DNA of 32,000 bases, from assembly GCA_016699955.1 (NCBI GenBank), contig CP064993.1:720001-752000 (forward strand), given 5' to 3'. The stretch comes from Candidatus Saccharimonadota bacterium (GTDB lineage Bacteria > Patescibacteriota > Saccharimonadia > Saccharimonadales > UBA4665). The notes below the pieces were generated by a model that worked only from the letters and a program-made list of their open reading frames with translations, was not told the DNA's origin and did not search any database. Below, one piece after another: positions 6,581 to 18,549 of this stretch. Positions within the stretch are counted from its first letter, which is position 1, and each line of letters opens with the position of its first letter. A program made the position numbers and the translations under genes.

Positions 6581-7831
6581 ATGTCTGAATATTATGCCCA
6601 GCGACAAAGAAACAGCCGACCAACAGAGGTGCTTCGAAAGCACCGGCCTGACTACTGGCTCCTTGTGATTGTGGCGTTTTTGTTGGCAGTTGGACTGATT
6701 GTGGTATATTCGATTAGTCCGGCGCTTTCCGAGCTTCGTGGCGGAAATTATGTTGTGCACCAGGTTGTTGCGATTCTGCTTAGTATTGTTGCTTTTTTTG
6801 TGACTGCTCGAACTCCACTTGCAAAGTGGGAAAAATGGCGTTGGTGGCTGCTAGCGGGTGCCGCGCTCGGTACCTTGGTTGCCCTGATTACACCAGCGAT
6901 ACCCGCGTACCCACAACATCGCTGGATTCGTTTTGGTAGTTTCTCGCTACAATCTGTCGAAGTACTCAAGTTTGCCTTGCTGATTGCGCTCAGCGGTTTT
7001 TTGACCGCACGGATACGCGAGGGAAATATTGGCGATTACAGAAAGACGCTTAAGCCGCTTGTCCTTGTACTTGGCGTGATAGGGTTTATTGTGGCGTTTG
7101 TACAGAGTGATTTAGGATCTGCCGGAGTAATTGTGGCAATGGCAACCATAATGGCGTTTGTTGCGGGTATGCCTATGCGCCGGATAATGACAATCGGTTT
7201 GGTAGTTGCGTTTGGAACCATGCTGGCAGTTTCCTCAACGCCTTACCGAAGAGAACGTCTCAACACATATTTACACCCTGAAGCAAACTGCTCGACAGAG
7301 GCGGGACATCAGGCATGCCAAGCTTTGATTGCCGTTGGTTCCGGTGGGTTAGTTGGCCTAGGACTTGGTAAGAGCGTTCAAGCGTATGGCTACTTGCCAG
7401 AAGCCCAAAATGACTCGATTTTTGCGATATATGCAGAAAAGTTCGGTTTTGTCGGGTCAATGGTGCTACTTGCGTTGTTTGTAACACTGTTTGCTCGGCT
7501 GAGGCTAATTATTGAACGGGCGCCCGACATGTTTAGCAGATTGGTTGTTGTCGGGGTGCTTGCGTGGCTGAGCACGCAGGCAATTATCAATATTGGTGCT
7601 ATGATAGGACTATTGCCCCTAAAGGGCATTACTTTGCCACTGATAAGCTACGGCGGTACAAGCGTTCTGTTCGTAGGCGCAGCGCTTGGGCTTGTTTATC
7701 AGGTTTCACACTACACAAGTTTTAACACACGGCGCGCCATGGGTAGCCAGCAAAGGGATAGACATGAACATAGTATTGACAGGCGGCGGTTCGGGGGGGC
7801 ATATCACCCCGGTTCTAGCAGTCGCCCATGA
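6581..7831 (+). CDS. ftsW: SEDS-family peptidoglycan glycosyltransferase FtsW
   Basis: Multi-TM protein with SEDS signatures (SDLGSA, PEAQNDSIFA, LPLISYGGTS). The start at 6581 is preceded by GGAG. The 3' end overlaps murG by 68 nt. Confidence 0.9.
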   Translation: MSEYYAQRQRNSRPTEVLRKHRPDYWLLVIVAFLLAVGLIVVYSISPALSELRGGNYVVHQVVAILLSIVAFFVTARTPLAKWEKWRWWLLAGAALGTLVALITPAIPAYPQHRWIRFGSFSLQSVEVLKFALLIALSGFLTARIREGNIGDYRKTLKPLVLVLGVIGFIVAFVQSDLGSAGVIVAMATIMAFVAGMPMRRIMTIGLVVAFGTMLAVSSTPYRRERLNTYLHPEANCSTEAGHQACQALIAVGSGGLVGLGLGKSVQAYGYLPEAQNDSIFAIYAEKFGFVGSMVLLALFVTLFARLRLIIERAPDMFSRLVVVGVLAWLSTQAIINIGAMIGLLPLKGITLPLISYGGTSVLFVGAALGLVYQVSHYTSFNTRRAMGSQQRDRHEHSIDRRRFGGAYHPGSSSRP

Positions 7832-8924
7832 ACTGAAGCGGCAGCTACCCTCATGCCACGTGATGTACATCGGTCAGTACGGTGATGATTTACTTGATAT
7901 TATTAAAGCCAACCCAGATATTGATGAAATACAAACCGTGTCGGCTGGAAAACTGCGACGATACAGCGGGGAGGGGTGGAGACAACTGTTTGATATAAAG
8001 ACTCAGGCGCTGAATATACGTGATGTATTTCGGACTATAAAGGGTTTTATACAAAGCTTTCGTTTGCTCAAGAAGGCCAAACCAGCCGTAGTTTTTACCC
8101 GTGGCGGTTTTGTGAGTGTGCCAGTCGCGTTGGCTGCAAAAATGCACGGCATTCCGTACCTTACTCACGATGCGGATAGCTTGCCAAGCCTCGCAAATCG
8201 TCTGATAGGGCGGTGGGCTCATCTTCATACAGTGGCGCTTCCGCCAGAGTTATATCCGTATCCTCAGGACAAAATCCGCATGGTTGGGATGCCCGTCGGC
8301 CACAATCATAAGCCTGTCGGCACGAATCTACGAGATGAGTATAAAAAAGAACTGGGGCTGGAGGCGTACGATGAAGTCTTGTTGGTAACTGGCGGGGGAA
8401 ACGGCGCCCGGATGCTCAACAAGTTTGTCGTTAACAATAGCCGGTATTTACTATCTCGCTTTCCAAATCTGATTATTCTGCATTTTGCAGGGCGCGCGCT
8501 TGAGCAGGAAACAAATAATATGTATGAAAGTCTCAAGCTGGAGGCTGCCCGTACCCGAGTACGTGTATACAGCTTTGCAGCGGATTTTTATAAGTTCAGC
8601 GGAGCCGCAGATGTCATAATTGCGAGAGGTGGTATGAGTAGTATCGCTGAATTTGCGCTTCAGCATAAAGCCTGTCTGCTGGTGCCTTCGAAACAGCTAG
8701 CGTGGAATGTAAAAAATAGTCAGGCTCTTGCTAAAGCAGGAGCCGTGCTCGAGCTCACCGAAGAACAGGCCGAGCAGCCTGAACGACTTGGCCGCACGGT
8801 TGCTGGCCTGCTGCGAGACCCTGCCCGCCGGGCAACGCTAGAAACGGCCATCGGTGTGTTTGCGCGGCCAAAGGCTGCAAATGAGCTAGCTACGCTCATC
8901 ATAGCAACAGGGAAGGGTGGCTAG
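7764..8924 (+). CDS. murG: undecaprenyl-PP-MurNAc-pentapeptide GlcNAc transferase MurG
   Basis: The N-terminus MNIVLTGGGSGGHITP matches the MurG G-loop. GT28-type C-terminal half. The start at 7764 is preceded by AGGGA. Confidence 0.9.
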   Translation: MNIVLTGGGSGGHITPVLAVAHELKRQLPSCHVMYIGQYGDDLLDIIKANPDIDEIQTVSAGKLRRYSGEGWRQLFDIKTQALNIRDVFRTIKGFIQSFRLLKKAKPAVVFTRGGFVSVPVALAAKMHGIPYLTHDADSLPSLANRLIGRWAHLHTVALPPELYPYPQDKIRMVGMPVGHNHKPVGTNLRDEYKKELGLEAYDEVLLVTGGGNGARMLNKFVVNNSRYLLSRFPNLIILHFAGRALEQETNNMYESLKLEAARTRVRVYSFAADFYKFSGAADVIIARGGMSSIAEFALQHKACLLVPSKQLAWNVKNSQALAKAGAVLELTEEQAEQPERLGRTVAGLLRDPARRATLETAIGVFARPKAANELATLIIATGKGG

Positions 8925-14703: not shown

Positions 14704-14800
14704 ATGCTTTTTAACAGTATACTCAATTTATATAATATAGCTAGACAACGGTTGGAAAGCATACACGACAGTTCTCGTCTCGTCAAGAGAGCGGAGTAAT

Positions 14801-15665
14801 TTATGAGGGAGCCCAGTGGTTATTGCCCAGGGGGTGGTTTTTGCCAGAAAGCCCGAGCATGGTCACGGTCTGGGTGAACAGGTTTGGGGCGAGTGTACTC
14901 CTTGTGAGCAGCTCGTGACCATCACTTACGCCGTTGTATAGAAGGTTTAGGAGTGCTTGTTCTTAGGTCGTGTCACCCTTATGAATATATGTCGTTGTGA
15001 TAAGATTTTTTGTTCCAAGCGCGAACAAGACGTCGTCGACAGAGCTGACGGGTATTGCCCCGGACTTTATCAAGTTGTTGCACCCCACGCTATTTGGGCT
15101 TGTAATATTTCCTGGTACCACTAAAACATCTCTGCCCTGTTCCATCGCGAACCGAGCAGTGTGAAGCGTTCCGCTTTTTTCTGCAGCTTCAGTGATGAGT
15201 AGTGCGTTGCTCAGCCCAGCCACAATACGGTTACGTGCGACAAAATTCTGTTTTAAGCTAGGCATACCCTCTGGATACTCAGAAATAATCACCCCGCCCG
15301 TTTCAAGTATTTGACGGGCGAGCTGGGTGTTACTGGCAGGATAAATCTTATCAAGGCCGTTTGCTAACACAGCTATGTGGAGACCCCCCGTTTTCAGGGC
15401 TGCTTCATGGGCGGTGGCATCTACCCCGAGAGCTAAGCCGCTAACTATGGAAATGCCCTTTGCGGCGAGGTCACCGGCGAGTTGAGAGGTTACAATCTTA
15501 CCATACGGTGTAATTCCTCGACTTCCCACAATGGCGACACGAGGGCGTGAAAGCCACTCATCTGGCTCACACCCGATGTAGTAGAGCTCTTTTGGGGGGC
15601 GACGGAATGTTGCGCAGAACGTCGGGATAAGAGCTGTTAGTTAATGTAATCTTTTTTACTTTCAT
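14801..15665 (-). pseudogene. dprA: dprA (DNA processing protein A) disrupted by a 1-nt frameshift and an in-frame TAA
   Basis: Frame A from ATG 15665 encodes MKVKKITLTNSSYPDVLRNIPSPP. After a C6 run (plus-strand G6, 15596-15601) the protein continues in another frame (KELYYIGCEPDEWLSRPRVAIVGSRGITPYG...). A TAA at 14963-14965 is followed in frame by 53 codons of a DprA winged-helix-like tail (EQALLNLLYNGVSDGHELL...LGLSGKNHPLGNNHW), ending at 14801. Confidence 0.85.
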
Positions 15666-15685
15666 ACGAAACCATGAAAAAGTAA

Positions 15686-15714
15686 TTGACAATATGACAC
15701 TTTATTGCTAAAAT
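15686..15714 (+). promoter_or_regulatory. strong sigma70 promoter (TTGACA-17-TAAAAT) heading a noncoding unit
   Basis: TTGACA at 15686-15691, 17-nt spacer, TAAAAT at 15709-15714. No ORF begins within the next 500 nt or so. Confidence 0.65.
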
Positions 15715-15720
15715 AGCAAC

Positions 15721-16140
15721 TCAGAAGTGGTATAGCATCACTTTCGCACCTTATATCCCCCATTCTAACACCCTCCCTTGCTTCTGACGAAGCTCTGGAG
15801 GAAAAATTTGTTAGATTGTTTTAGAACGTGCCATTTTAAAAGTTGTTACCCTCCACTTTTCTCTCGGCATTTCCTGGCTACTAGCCTGGAGCGTTCTAAA
15901 ACAAACTAACCCCTTTAACTAGGACCTCCCAAAATTTTTGATTTTGAGAGGACCCCAGAAAAACCAATGAATCTGGACGATTTTTAGGTATCAAATCCTG
16001 AAAAGCACGTCATCGTCTATGCCACAGATGCACGATGCTTCATTCTCTGCGGGTGGGTTGAAGGGTGGAGGGAGATCACTTCGGTGGTCTCCATAAATAG
16101 ACCATCGAGCGGTGCCCACCCCCTCTCGGTGGTCTTTTTA
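15721..16140 (+). ncRNA. candidate structured noncoding RNA or long 5' leader (about 420 nt), class unknown
   Basis: Bounded by the promoter at 15686-15714 and the terminator at 16099-16140. Helices read by eye: 15721-15727/15781-15787 (7 bp); 15810-15828/15892-15910 (18 of 19 bp); 15922-15954 hairpin; 16070-16091 9-bp hairpin closed by a C(UUCG)G tetraloop. Confidence 0.4.
16099..16140 (+). terminator. intrinsic terminator
   Basis: An 11-bp stem: AGACCATCGAG (16099-16109) pairs with CTCGGTGGTCT (16125-16135), including one G-U pair. It is followed by TTTTAT. Confidence 0.7.
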
Positions 16141-16266
16141 TATTGTTCCCCTTGGTTTAGACGCCGTGAAAATTGCCACTGGCGATCTCCGCCCTCTCGG
16201 CGGTATCTTGCAATGCGAGAAAGCAAATTTGATAAAACTGTAATAAAGTATTATAATACAACAATT

Positions 16267-18549
16267 ATGAACCACCCCGATCAAGTAGATATACGACTAG
16301 CACCAGTGAGCCCAGGGCTACATATTATTAAAGAGGCCAATCTGGTCGATGGCCGATTTGCTCAAGGCAACGGCATACACAATACGATGAGCTTTGAAGA
16401 AATGGCTAACCTAGGCGAGACACCATTCATGTATAAGGGACGCCCAGCGGCTGTTGAGAGTTTTGCTGAGTTGCAAACGCAATGGATGGACGCCGGAGCA
16501 CTCTTTGTAAGCGACAGTAGCTACCTTATTAGTAACCATTCGACTGGATTGCTGCAAAGAATGACCGATAGATATTGGACTTGTCATAGTGGGCAGCTTA
16601 AGACTTTGGGGTTGGCTTGCACGTGGCGCGGAATAGTGGCTGCAAGGCTTCTGGGTGGAATACATAGCAAAACACTCGAGGGTAACTATAAAGCTGCACT
16701 TAAGGAGTATGGTGGAGAGACTAAACCTGATGGAATTGTGCGAACTATTTTGGGTCAGCGTCCAAGCGTGGATCGAACACTCTCAAAAATAAATGAGGAA
16801 GGTAACTATACATCCTTAGGTTACTTAGAGAAGTATGATGGGCTTGTATTGGAGGAACAAACTGTACTGGCGGAAACGAGTCTTAGGTTTGCCGCATCGG
16901 TATTGACTGCACACCCTGATGTTGGGAAGAGTGCGCGGGTGTTTAACGCTACTACAAACTTAATAAATAATACTTCTACCCCTAAAAATCAGACAGTTAA
17001 GGAATATTTGACTGGGCTAGATGGTCGCCTCGAAAAAGCCTTGCTTCTACTAGAAACTAAGGCCTCCAACGCACCAGAAAGAATGCGGGACGTGTTTGAT
17101 TTGGCAAAAGATGTGATTATTGAGTCTATAGATTTACGCTGTGGTGCACTGACTGATTTCCCCGAAGTCGCGAGCAGCTTTGTTCGGTATGAGCCACTAA
17201 GTGGCGACAGACTTAGGGGTGTACTGGAGGCGTATAATAGCCGCCGGGACCGCCGTCTATTATTATCAAGACAGGATAATTCTCCACGAAAAGCTACCAC
17301 CGAAGGAAGTGAAGCCCTGGCGGCGGCTCGTCAGAAACGGCTAGACGAGGCTGCAAAACGAGCCGCCGAATTGGCTCTGCGAACACAGGCAGAGATGGAG
17401 GCTGACGCGGAAATAAGCGAAAATATGCTTAGAGTAACCTCCGCACAGGCCACTCTTCTCGAGCAGTATACTTTTACGGGGAAAAAGTTACGTTCGTTGG
17501 GTTTCATGGGTAAAGATTCTTTTTCTTATATTTTGCAAAAAGAGACTAGCCAAGTACTTCCAGATTCTGTGCTACAAACATTTGTTGGCTTGCTAGTCCT
17601 TGCCTCAAAAAGCCAAGACGGCGAAAGCTTCAAGAATGAGTTAGTAGAACAGCTCGTGGCTGACAGTAGCCTACGTTCGGAGTATGGGCGTTTATTTGCT
17701 CAACTTAATAGCCGTTCAGGCTATCGTAATGCATTACAGCGTGATTTATCGACCGAGATTGAATGGCTTAGTGACGCAGATAATTTTGCTTCAATACGGA
17801 AGATTTTTGAAATCATTGGGGCGGAAGATTCTCCTTATAATTCTCCATTCGGCAAGGAAGATTGGGGGGCGGCCATAGGAATACTTTCTGACGTTCTAGT
17901 GTACAAACAAGGGCTTACTGCATCTCAGGGCGATGGCGATACTTCGGTACGTGAGGACGACGAAGTACAGGTGGCCTTAGCCACAGGGGAATTGCTAGGT
18001 GACGATGATCAAGGAGACGGTGAGGGCGTGAAATTAGGTGCCGATCCGGCGTCTCCGCCGGATTTGCCTGCTCTTTGGGATAAAAAAGACGTGATTCGCC
18101 AACTAGATTGGGAAATGTTCCCCCCCGATGCGGACATCAATGTGATTAAAGGTTTTACACTGGAGAATTATGGAGACAAGGTTAGCCATAAGATTAACTG
18201 GGGCTACGTAGAAAACTTATTGAAGCTCCGTGACATTTTTGGCGGTGTAGTAGGTCAGACGCTTCCTAGCAGCCTAGGAAAAGGCGGTGTACCATATTAC
18301 GTAGCAGTGCTGTCAGTGGATGGTGAAGAGTTTGCTATCGGTGAGAGCCCGGAGTACGGTAACGCCACTTACGTACTTAGGAGTAAATTGGCCGAGTATG
18401 GTGCTAGCTATAGAGAAATCTTTGAACAGACACGCAGCTTTGCGCGACTTCTTGGAGCAGAACAAGTCGTTCACGTTAATGGGCAGAACCAGTTAATCAG
18501 GATTCGGGACAAAATCCAGGAGCTTTTGTTGCTACAGCCAAAACAGTAG
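16267..18549 (+). CDS. large orphan protein (761 aa), no signal peptide or TM, central coiled coil, acidic linker, C-terminal globular domain
   Basis: Long uninterrupted ORF. The ATG at 16267 lies 9 nt after a TATAAT (16252-16257). The ORF-track start at 16084 lies inside the UUCG hairpin and terminator. I recognise no catalytic motif. Confidence 0.7.
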   Translation: MNHPDQVDIRLAPVSPGLHIIKEANLVDGRFAQGNGIHNTMSFEEMANLGETPFMYKGRPAAVESFAELQTQWMDAGALFVSDSSYLISNHSTGLLQRMTDRYWTCHSGQLKTLGLACTWRGIVAARLLGGIHSKTLEGNYKAALKEYGGETKPDGIVRTILGQRPSVDRTLSKINEEGNYTSLGYLEKYDGLVLEEQTVLAETSLRFAASVLTAHPDVGKSARVFNATTNLINNTSTPKNQTVKEYLTGLDGRLEKALLLLETKASNAPERMRDVFDLAKDVIIESIDLRCGALTDFPEVASSFVRYEPLSGDRLRGVLEAYNSRRDRRLLLSRQDNSPRKATTEGSEALAAARQKRLDEAAKRAAELALRTQAEMEADAEISENMLRVTSAQATLLEQYTFTGKKLRSLGFMGKDSFSYILQKETSQVLPDSVLQTFVGLLVLASKSQDGESFKNELVEQLVADSSLRSEYGRLFAQLNSRSGYRNALQRDLSTEIEWLSDADNFASIRKIFEIIGAEDSPYNSPFGKEDWGAAIGILSDVLVYKQGLTASQGDGDTSVREDDEVQVALATGELLGDDDQGDGEGVKLGADPASPPDLPALWDKKDVIRQLDWEMFPPDADINVIKGFTLENYGDKVSHKINWGYVENLLKLRDIFGGVVGQTLPSSLGKGGVPYYVAVLSVDGEEFAIGESPEYGNATYVLRSKLAEYGASYREIFEQTRSFARLLGAEQVVHVNGQNQLIRIRDKIQELLLLQPKQ

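Follow-up and report, generated by a model that had tools for sequence, protein, structure and literature searches.

We analyzed a 32,000-nucleotide (nt) stretch of a Saccharibacteria (TM7) chromosome (hereafter, the window), in which positions 15686 to 16140 of the plus strand hold a putative noncoding RNA (ncRNA) gene. To the left of this gene, on the minus strand, lie topA and dprA; to its right lie an orphan 760-amino-acid open reading frame (ORF) on the plus strand and then pth and der, both on the minus strand. The true start codon of dprA is the ATG at 15665 (minus strand) and that of the 760-amino-acid ORF is the ATG at 16267. Between them are short ORFs only, none longer than 69 amino acids within 15666 to 16266, and in 78 homologues of the region the longest ORF has a median length of 51 amino acids and no conserved position. 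A preliminary description, written from the letters of the window, had recognized the interval as free of ORFs and proposed that it encodes a novel structured RNA as a transcription unit of its own, from promoter to terminator. All of the features it listed are present where it had placed them, and the proposal is supported by the conservation of sequence and structure, the conserved promoter and terminator, and the missing Rfam match described below, which at the level of sequence confirm a genuine new class of structured ncRNA.

Conservation and synteny of the RNA gene

A DprA alignment (A1) supplied 80 loci from species-representative genomes, i.e., the 80 closest DprA relatives, and the DprA homologues are named Candidatus Saccharibacteria or Saccharimonadales. 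Using the intergenic region as the query, blastn and nhmmer located a homologue in 79 of the 80 loci, immediately upstream of dprA and on the other strand; the 80th locus has no upstream DNA. The matches span window positions 15666 to 16145, and the window itself contains one copy (E = 1.6e-89). Across the loci the usual gene order is der, pth, the RNA (on the opposite strand and convergent with pth), dprA, and topA, so that the RNA gene is divergent from dprA and is both single-copy and syntenic, between pth and dprA-topA. The predicted RNA is thus conserved in at least 79 Saccharibacteria species, and the search of related genomes that the preliminary description had recommended revealed strong conservation of sequence as well as structure.

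While DprA protein identity among the sampled genomes drops to 54%, several blocks of the RNA gene are 95 to 100% identical, namely, the promoter, GCACCUUAUAUCCCCCAUUCUAACA, UUGUUAGAUUGUUUUAGAGCG, AGUUGUUACCCUCCACU, CGCUCUAAAACAAACUAACCCCUUUAAC, GGUGGGUUGAAGGG, and GCGGUGCCCACCCCCUC. Among 36 diverse sequences, 60 alignment columns are invariant and another 53 nearly so; the median pairwise identity, taken across the entire RNA, is ∼61%. About 110 positions of the RNA are conserved at ≥90%, including three unpaired C-rich elements. Saccharibacteria thus appear to retain an RNA of 320 to 530 nt whose sequence is more strictly conserved than the adjoining proteins. The RNA is ∼420 nt long in the window and 320 to 534 nt in its relatives, the minimal forms being without the P2 insert and the P4a and P7 hairpins described below. 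Further copies (19 full-length and 3 truncated) were found by scanning metagenomes with a 15-mer from the apex of the 3′ hairpin, and an IMG/VR provirus contig (L153) carries one full copy.

Promoter, terminator, and coding strand

The gene begins with a promoter at 15686 to 15714 (plus strand), consisting of a −35 element TTGACA (15686 to 15691), a 17-nt spacer, and a −10 element TAAAAT (15709 to 15714) within an extended −10 sequence, TGCTAAAAT (15706 to 15714). This is the near-consensus promoter that the preliminary description had pointed out. It matches the consensus at 11 of 12 positions and has the upstream TG (TTGACA-17-TGnTAAAAT), and in our promoter scan it was the top site within the surrounding 20 kb, tied with a site at 16229 to 16257. 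Among the 78 homologues, TTGACA is kept in 74, TGnTAnAAT in ∼76, and the 17-nt spacer in 75. Transcription would be expected to start at ∼15719 to 15722.

At the other end, hairpin P8 (16099 to 16140, plus strand) has the form of an intrinsic (Rho-independent) terminator, a G+C-rich hairpin followed by a U-run (TTTTT). Its 11-bp stem (16099 to 16109 with 16125 to 16135), read as a terminator from the outset, carries the invariant apex GCGGUGCCCACCCCCUC (16109 to 16125), which is C-rich element 3. Double changes occur at 9 of 10 pairs, as at 16107-16127 (37 GC, 37 CG, 12 AU, and 8 UA), and P8 pairs top the mutual-information scan. The stem has the strongest covariation of all the helices, yet the apex is identical in 77 of 78 homologues. 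A T-run (≥5 T within the 10 nt after the stem) is likewise kept in 77 of 78.

Strand can also be judged from the paired cells of the alignment, in which G-U and U-G combinations (179) far outnumber A-C and C-A combinations (28); the helices would therefore function on the plus strand only. From these signals, we infer that the RNA is transcribed on the plus strand from its own strong, conserved sigma-70-type promoter and ends at a conserved intrinsic terminator.

Fold and covariation

The plus strand from 15721 to 16145 folds with a predicted energy of −152.4 kcal/mol. Relative to dinucleotide shuffles its z score is −7.6, and that of the minus strand is −5.3. Helices were derived from RNAalifold and pair counts on 78 sequences, from RNAalifold on a second alignment (A2), and from a mutual-information scan of 95 sequences. 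In the A2 structure of 67 pairs, 92.2% of cells are paired, compared to 38 to 49% in controls in which the 3′ partners were slid by 1 to 3 columns. Double changes occur at 32 pairs (14 to 17 in the slid controls), and the covariation score is 0.261 (∼0.07 in the controls). None of 500 shuffles reached any observed measure. Shuffling ignores phylogeny, whereas the slid-partner control keeps the relatedness of the sequences, and both give the same answer. Ten predicted helices have covariation support. They are arranged in a 5′ domain (P1 to P3) and a 3′ domain closed by the long-range helix P4, a predicted fold that compensatory changes maintain across Saccharimonadia. All features below are on the plus strand.

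The 5′ domain opens with hairpin P1 (15723 to 15729 with 15739 to 15745), whose sequence is variable and which has double changes at all seven pairs. The preliminary description had placed a 7-bp closing helix here (15721 to 15727 with 15781 to 15787); the two arms are indeed complementary in the window, but the helix is not conserved, its 3′ arm lying in a lineage-specific insert that most homologues lack (gap fraction, 0.5 to 0.8). P1 is followed by J1/2, a near-invariant unpaired stretch in the conservation profile, GCACCUUAUAUCCCCCAU (15746 to 15763), which is C-rich element 1. P2 (15764 to 15815) pairs UCUAACA (15764 to 15770) with UGUUAGA (15809 to 15815) in 94.8% of cells. In the window its loop is occupied by the insert, a 38-nt hairpin (15771 to 15808), while 31 of 78 homologues have a loop of only 2 to 4 nt, which makes P2 a plain hairpin there.

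P3 (15817 to 15828 with 15892 to 15903; GUUUUAGAGCG and CGCUCUAAAAC) has 12 bp, is paired in 97% of cells, and has double changes at five pairs, e.g., GC/AU/GU at 15826-15894. It forms the covarying core of the long helix recognized at the start, which was correctly drawn with 18 of 19 bp paired (15810 to 15828 with 15892 to 15910). The extension of that helix overlaps P2: GUUAG (15810 to 15814) can pair with CUAAC at 15765 to 15769, as in P2, or with CUAAC at 15906 to 15910. All three segments are invariant, and GUUAG could have either partner or switch between both. P3 encloses a variable hairpin, P3b (∼15873 to 15891), and the hairpin P3a (15840 to 15843 with 15855 to 15858), whose invariant 11-nt loop, UGUUACCCUCC, is C-rich element 2. 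ACCCUCCAC is found in 76 of 78 homologues, and the P3a stem covaries, e.g., from AAGU/ACUU to AUGU/ACAU or UAGU/ACUA. One segment of P3, GUUUUAGAGC, is identical to the start of the Streptococcus pyogenes Cas9 repeat; the identity covers the first 10 nt of P3. This likeness is probably a coincidence, as there is no cas context and the synteny is that of housekeeping genes.

In the 3′ domain, P4 (15911 to 16065) joins CCCUUUAACU (15911 to 15920) to GGUUGAAGGG (16056 to 16065) by 10 bp that are paired in 98.3% of cells. Its U15916-G16060 wobble is invariant, and pair 15919-16057 is CG in 87, GC in 5, and AU in 2 of the 95 sequences. Because P2 and P4 are both nearly invariant, these two helices rest mostly on pairing and less on covariation, which is weak for P2. 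Within P4 lies P4a (15922 to 15954). The hairpin of ∼13 bp reported here beforehand does fold in the window, but it is an element of variable length and is absent from the minimal forms. P6 (15966 to 15969 with 16041 to 16044), which was found by mutual information, encloses three further helices and has compensatory changes (15968-16042, 48 CG, 25 UA, and 13 UG; 15967-16043, 77 GC and 7 AU). Nested in it are P4b (15971 to 15973 with 15979 to 15981; CG/UA/UG at 15972-15980), P4c (15982 to 15985 with 16000 to 16003), and P5 (16004 to 16013 with 16028 to 16039; 48 GC and 35 AU at 16005-16038). An RNAalifold pairing of 16041 to 16043 with 16053 to 16055 is superseded by the covarying P6. Between P4 and P8 is the optional hairpin P7 (16071 to 16079 with 16084 to 16092). 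It is capped by UUCG in the window, in agreement with the first description, and covaries where present, but it is missing from 9 of 78 homologues and its loop is not conserved.

An invariant, unpaired G-tract, (G)GGUGG (16050 to 16056), is a candidate pseudoknot partner of the P8 loop. The complementarity noticed in the preliminary description is exact, GGUGG (16052 to 16056) facing CCACC (16116 to 16120), and both sides are ≥95% invariant, with no covariation. The adjacent G's (16056 to 16065) sit in the covariation-supported long-range helix. Since the G-tract is complementary to the loop of P8 and not to its stem, this pairing would not disrupt the terminator. Another candidate pseudoknot, CCCUCCAC (15849 to 15856) with GUGGAGGG (16065 to 16072), was rejected, as distant homologues do not keep its 3′ partner (e.g., CG39/CU29).

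A variable slot downstream of the gene

In 69 species, the distance from the 3′ end of the RNA to the pth stop codon ranges from 3 nt to 3.1 kb, and the cargo of this slot is unrelated between species. It consists of orphan proteins of 760 to 800 amino acids in the window, L001, and L003, a TrpB-like pyridoxal phosphate enzyme in L008 and L012, a reverse transcriptase in L023, and a methyltransferase in L017. In an aquatic Saccharibacterium (L357 to L359, 1018 to 2516), ∼1.5 kb between pth and the RNA contains no called genes, long ORF, or Rfam match. In the window ORF (16267 to 18549, plus strand), neither Pfam nor PADLOC recognizes a domain, and 5.8 billion proteins include a single weak homologue; relatives of ∼30% identity are confined to the same slot of L001 and L003. 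Its own promoter, TTGATA-17-TATAAT, ends 9 nt before the ATG. By these comparisons, the ORF is a lineage-specific insertion. Given the variable downstream DNA, the convergence on pth, and the ORF's own promoter, the RNA does not appear to be a leader of any gene, and we reject a riboswitch or attenuator. The alternative pairing of that kind envisaged in the preliminary description is not supported: the RNA is not upstream of a conserved gene, the terminator looks constitutive in 77 of 78 homologues, and neither the 7-bp closing helix nor the UUCG hairpin belongs to the conserved fold.

The edge of the slot carries short repeats of the gene's 3′ end. In the window, a degenerate direct repeat of the 3′ half of P8 (CCCTCTCGGYGGT; 16192 to 16204, plus strand) matches at 12 of 13 positions. 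This is the third of the CTCGG motifs in the preliminary description, possibly a scar that recombination left at the border of the variable slot. Direct repeats of the 3′ end start at CCCTC, the 3′ edge of the loop, and apart from the window (12/13) they are seen 304 nt downstream in L003 and 63 nt downstream in L079, each 22 nt long, and in L027 (12 nt). L002 shows the complementary type, where a copy 570 nt downstream comprises P7 together with the 5′ stem and the loop as far as CCCACCCCC. On the provirus-called contig L153 (1 to 8444), the full RNA (7973 to 8368) is flanked on its 5′ side by RecT, a PD-(D/E)XK-FtsK fusion, and two DNA methylases in place of dprA, and a second, stand-alone apex hairpin lies 1.1 kb away on the other strand (∼6855 to 6890). 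By analogy, slot and repeats resemble the use of tRNA and tmRNA genes as att sites, which is compatible with our reading of the gene as an RNA module. As with such integration targets, a conserved stable-RNA gene has a 3′ hairpin region followed by variable DNA and short direct repeats of the 3′ end. Unlike them, this gene has no tRNA-like domain, no integrase or intact island was found with it, and recombination is deduced from scars only.

Comparison with known RNA families

At the gathering thresholds of Rfam 15, the sole match in the whole window is a tRNA elsewhere in it. Lowering the threshold to E ≤ 10 for window positions 15500 to 16400 yielded only microRNA-precursor noise on the long helix P3, so the Rfam search proposed at the outset assigns the region to no family. 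With the minimal 320-nt homologue (L026), the same threshold gave generic hairpin matches only (the trpB motif and ctRNA). Over the 3′-terminal 108 nt of the L026 RNA, the trpB motif (RF04312) scored 22.8 bits, compared to a gathering threshold of 59. We rejected it, as the alignment shows a generic resemblance of two hairpins plus a terminator and the match was gone in a larger search. A likeness of J1/2 and the P8 apex to helix III/loop C of 5S rRNA was also discarded, its local alignment score being no higher than those of shuffles.

The large housekeeping RNAs were considered individually. In RNase P RNA, P1 joins the 5′ and 3′ ends, and the P4 pseudoknot is flanked by GGAAAGUCC and ACAGAA..GGCUUA blocks. 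These blocks are absent from our sequence, the ends of which form the local hairpins P1 and P8, and neither RF00010 nor RF00011 matched window positions 15500 to 16400 or L026 at E ≤ 10. A tmRNA combines a tag reading frame with a tRNA-like domain, in which both ends of the RNA build the acceptor stem next to a T-arm. ARAGORN found no tmRNA in the window, and there is no Rfam tmRNA match and no tRNA-like domain. There is no match to 6S RNA (RF00013) either, a binder of RNA polymerase holoenzyme, and the fold is branched, with a long-range P4 and a nested P6, not a rod with a large central bubble. Signal recognition particle (SRP) RNA families, typified by a domain IV helix that has a conserved GNAR loop and a symmetric loop, gave no match at E ≤ 10.

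Our literature searches returned no description of such an ncRNA from Saccharibacteria or the candidate phyla radiation (CPR), nor of the apex sequence. The RNA has most in common with OLE, raiA, ROOL, and GOLLD, which are likewise several hundred nucleotides long, combine many invariant positions, covarying helices, and optional hairpins, and are lineage-restricted separate transcripts whose biochemical role is unknown or partly known. It has no sequence or structure match to them in Rfam 15 and differs in taxon (Saccharimonadia) and in fold. It is also strictly single-copy and syntenic in reduced genomes of ∼1 Mb and, in contrast to those RNAs, is not tied to prophages or specific partner genes. 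The 6C RNA of Actinobacteria and RsaE/RoxS of Firmicutes resemble it in that C-rich loops of their hairpins, including one on the terminator hairpin, are conserved. However, those RNAs are 60 to 120 nt long with two or three simple hairpins (in 6C-type RNAs, two short ones whose loops have at least 6 C), whereas the Saccharibacteria RNA is a large, covarying multidomain fold; their covariance models gave no match, and C-rich loops are all that they have in common with it. The motifs of Weinberg et al. (PMC5737381, 2017) are also independent small units that have an intrinsic terminator, are not in 5′ untranslated regions (UTRs), and are too conserved and structured for a simple small RNA (sRNA). 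They are much shorter, come from other phyla, and have no phage-shared invariant terminator apex, and none matches the Saccharibacteria RNA. The only TM7 motif in that study is lysM-TM7, a 5′ UTR element (PMC5737381).

The apex hairpin on viral contigs

An IMG/VR scan for GGTGCCCACCCCCTC returned 86 loci with 74 unique contexts, and the whole RNA is present in only one of these loci (L153). In 44 of the 74 contexts, the motif forms the loop of a hairpin whose stem (≥5 bp) is unrelated and variable, where ∼0.5 would be expected by chance. All 44 hairpins carry the GC prefix and hence the exact apex GCGGUGCCCACCCCCUC, and 14 have a T-run. A control 15-mer from P4, ACTAACCCCTTTAAC, had 71 viral matches, none of them in a recurrent context. 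There is one apex hairpin per viral contig, and it is found after major capsid genes, after endolysin and holin cassettes, between tRNAs, between a small ORF and the scaffold gene downstream of portal, and upstream of the terminase large subunit gene. In one phage family (A3), the apex is invariant and the stems covary. The hairpins tend to share the strand of the closest ORF upstream of them (29 cases, versus 5 on the other strand), which fits a hairpin at the 3′ end of an RNA.

No Rfam family covers the viral apex hairpins, and in cultured phages (INPHARED) they are essentially absent. In bulk metagenomes, matches to the 15-mer are mostly by chance, in GC-rich coding DNA, while matches in a hairpin context are mainly the full RNA. 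Some viral loci (L110, L142, L157, L164, and L165, among L081 to L166) look like short promoter-to-terminator units. An enrichment of CCUCC upstream of the viral hairpins (11/50 versus 4/50) stems partly from tRNA ends and was not convincing. We also set aside the near-identity of some viral and host stems as evidence for attP, since the excess over shuffled hairpins is weak: 5 of 43 share ≥14 of 20 positions and 1 reaches ≥17, with the 95th percentile of the null at 13.

Proposed function and alternatives

What does this RNA do? We consider it moderately probable that this is a stand-alone structured ncRNA gene of a previously undescribed family, most likely a trans-acting ribonucleoprotein (RNP) or recognition RNA. 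It would act in trans as a protein-binding RNA or RNP scaffold and might be catalytic. Recognition would fall to the three C-rich elements that are invariant and unpaired (AUAUCCCCCAU of J1/2, UUACCCUCC in the P3a loop, and the apex of P8), while the invariant GGUGG tract probably docks on the P8 loop. P8 may double as the terminator and a portable recognition hairpin that phages put at the 3′ ends of their own transcripts, while the DNA of the same site could behave like a recombination hot spot. We arrive at a trans-acting role because the ∼110 conserved positions go beyond what the helices need, because three invariant C-rich elements are combined with an invariant single-stranded GGUGG complementary to the P8 loop, and because phages appear to reuse the P8 apex at transcript 3′ ends. 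The RNA is probably a previously undescribed part of the core machinery of Saccharibacteria. A bolder version, which we offer tentatively and regard as on balance unlikely, is that it is a subunit of an undiscovered RNP or ribozyme essential in Saccharibacteria and that the P8 apex is a trans-recognition signal for a host factor; phages would borrow or jam that factor by adding a copy of the signal to the 3′ ends of their late transcripts, and mobile elements would use the site as an integration core.

Several points weigh against our main reading of the gene. Transcription, RNA ends, and abundance are deduced from sequence signals only. The MAFFT alignments are not structure-aware and leave variable hairpins out of the assessment, and in them P1 is paired in only 73% of cells. 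No covariation stands behind the invariant loops in the idea of a pseudoknot or recognition surfaces, and the invariance of the P8 apex could partly be a DNA-level constraint, as in a recombination core. The sequence analysis identified no partner protein or RNA. Phage hosts were sought through the terminase large subunit, and none of its 474 homologues has a taxon name. The distribution, finally, is known within the 80 closest DprA relatives.

Among the other explanations, a base-pairing regulatory sRNA like 6C or RsaE/RoxS, with the C-rich loops (CCCCC, CCCUCC, and CCCACCCCC) as seeds for G-rich mRNA sites, would account for the three invariant unpaired C-rich elements and for the stand-alone unit from promoter to terminator. 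We think it unlikely, as the RNA is four to six times bigger than such sRNAs, its conserved positions and long-range fold far exceed what a seed needs, and it matches neither 6C nor RsaE in Rfam. Window genes offer nearly no Shine-Dalgarno motifs or G-rich leaders as targets (many look leaderless), and a search of the window for complements of the loops showed no pattern. The gene could instead be chiefly a DNA element, the 3′ hairpin being attB, the viral hairpins attP, and the apex kept for recognition by a recombinase. The variable slot exactly 3′ of the gene, the direct repeats from the loop edge with the complementary partial duplicate in L002, the mobile-element genes adjoining the RNA gene in L153, and the single apex hairpin per viral contig all fit. 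However, such an element accounts at most for P8 and not for the other ∼380 nt of covarying helices and invariant blocks, and no integrase was found among 10 neighboring viral ORFs or in the host slots. The viral hairpins are also strand-biased behind ORFs and lie after capsid and lysis genes in the manner of terminators, and the resemblance of their stems to host stems is only weakly above that of shuffled controls. It is thus a very unlikely explanation of the gene as a whole.

A highly diverged housekeeping RNA (RNase P, 6S, tmRNA, or SRP RNA) missed by current models is similarly improbable. Size, a strong promoter, a single copy, and phylum-wide conservation recall rnpB or ssrS, and PGAP annotated only 2 ncRNAs in a Saccharibacteria genome announcement (PMC8830319). 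CPR RNase P RNAs are known to be diverged, but they could still be detected with RF00010 at lowered thresholds (PMC8172020), while our region and the 320-nt homologue have no such match at E ≤ 10. Local hairpins at the ends exclude an RNase P P1 or a tmRNA acceptor stem, ARAGORN finds no tmRNA, and a branched fold with a long-range helix is not a 6S rod. A cis-acting leader, riboswitch, or attenuator of the 760-amino-acid gene is hardly credible, as synteny effectively refutes it. In the window the ORF does come next on the strand of the RNA, and alternative pairing between G-tract and terminator loop is conceivable, but the ORF is lineage-specific with its own promoter, the RNA converges on pth in most species, and 77 of 78 homologues keep both the stem and the U-run of the terminator intact. 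Lowest of all we place a minus-strand element, i.e., a long structured 5′ UTR of dprA or read-through from pth. The region does lie between pth and dprA, der, pth, dprA, and topA are all on the strand opposite to the RNA, and the minus strand, too, folds better than shuffles. Against this, the 179 G-U pairs would become A-C mismatches on that strand, the conserved promoter and U-run are read on the plus strand, and in relatives a TAATAT box (consensus) 6 nt before the dprA ATG suggests a leaderless dprA mRNA.

A trans-acting structured RNA would be of interest because of its setting. Saccharibacteria are tiny episymbionts with genomes of ∼1 Mb that have lost much of standard metabolism, and they now include cultivable, genetically tractable members. 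To our knowledge, new large, highly conserved classes of bacterial RNA are rare. Earlier such classes proved to be ribozymes, RNP scaffolds, or global regulators. The finding is a concrete, testable RNA gene in the CPR, and it suggests that a host RNA element and hairpins on the genomes of uncultured phages are unexpectedly linked. The shared apex could mark phage-host pairs or reveal a host factor needed by both the host RNA and the phages.

Other features of the window and related loci

The dprA gene of the window (14704 to 15665, minus strand) has two breaks relative to 287-amino-acid homologues. A G6/C6 run near 15594 to 15599 is where its N-terminal segment (MKVKKITL...SPP) falls out of frame, and the C-terminal winged-helix part is absent beyond 14963. 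The breaks reflect either a pseudogene or homopolymer indel errors of a long-read assembly, the contig being 1.21 Mb long. In the spacer between dprA and topA of L026 (6554 to 6600, plus strand), a subthreshold match to a type III hammerhead (21.8 bits; gathering score, 48.5) keeps an intact CUGAUGAG...GAAA core. Among 26 ORFs of the window, Shine-Dalgarno motifs are nearly absent before the start codons, and several genes (e.g., at 487 and 16267) have a −10 box 6 to 10 nt before the ATG. These close −10 boxes suggest that leaderless mRNAs are widespread.

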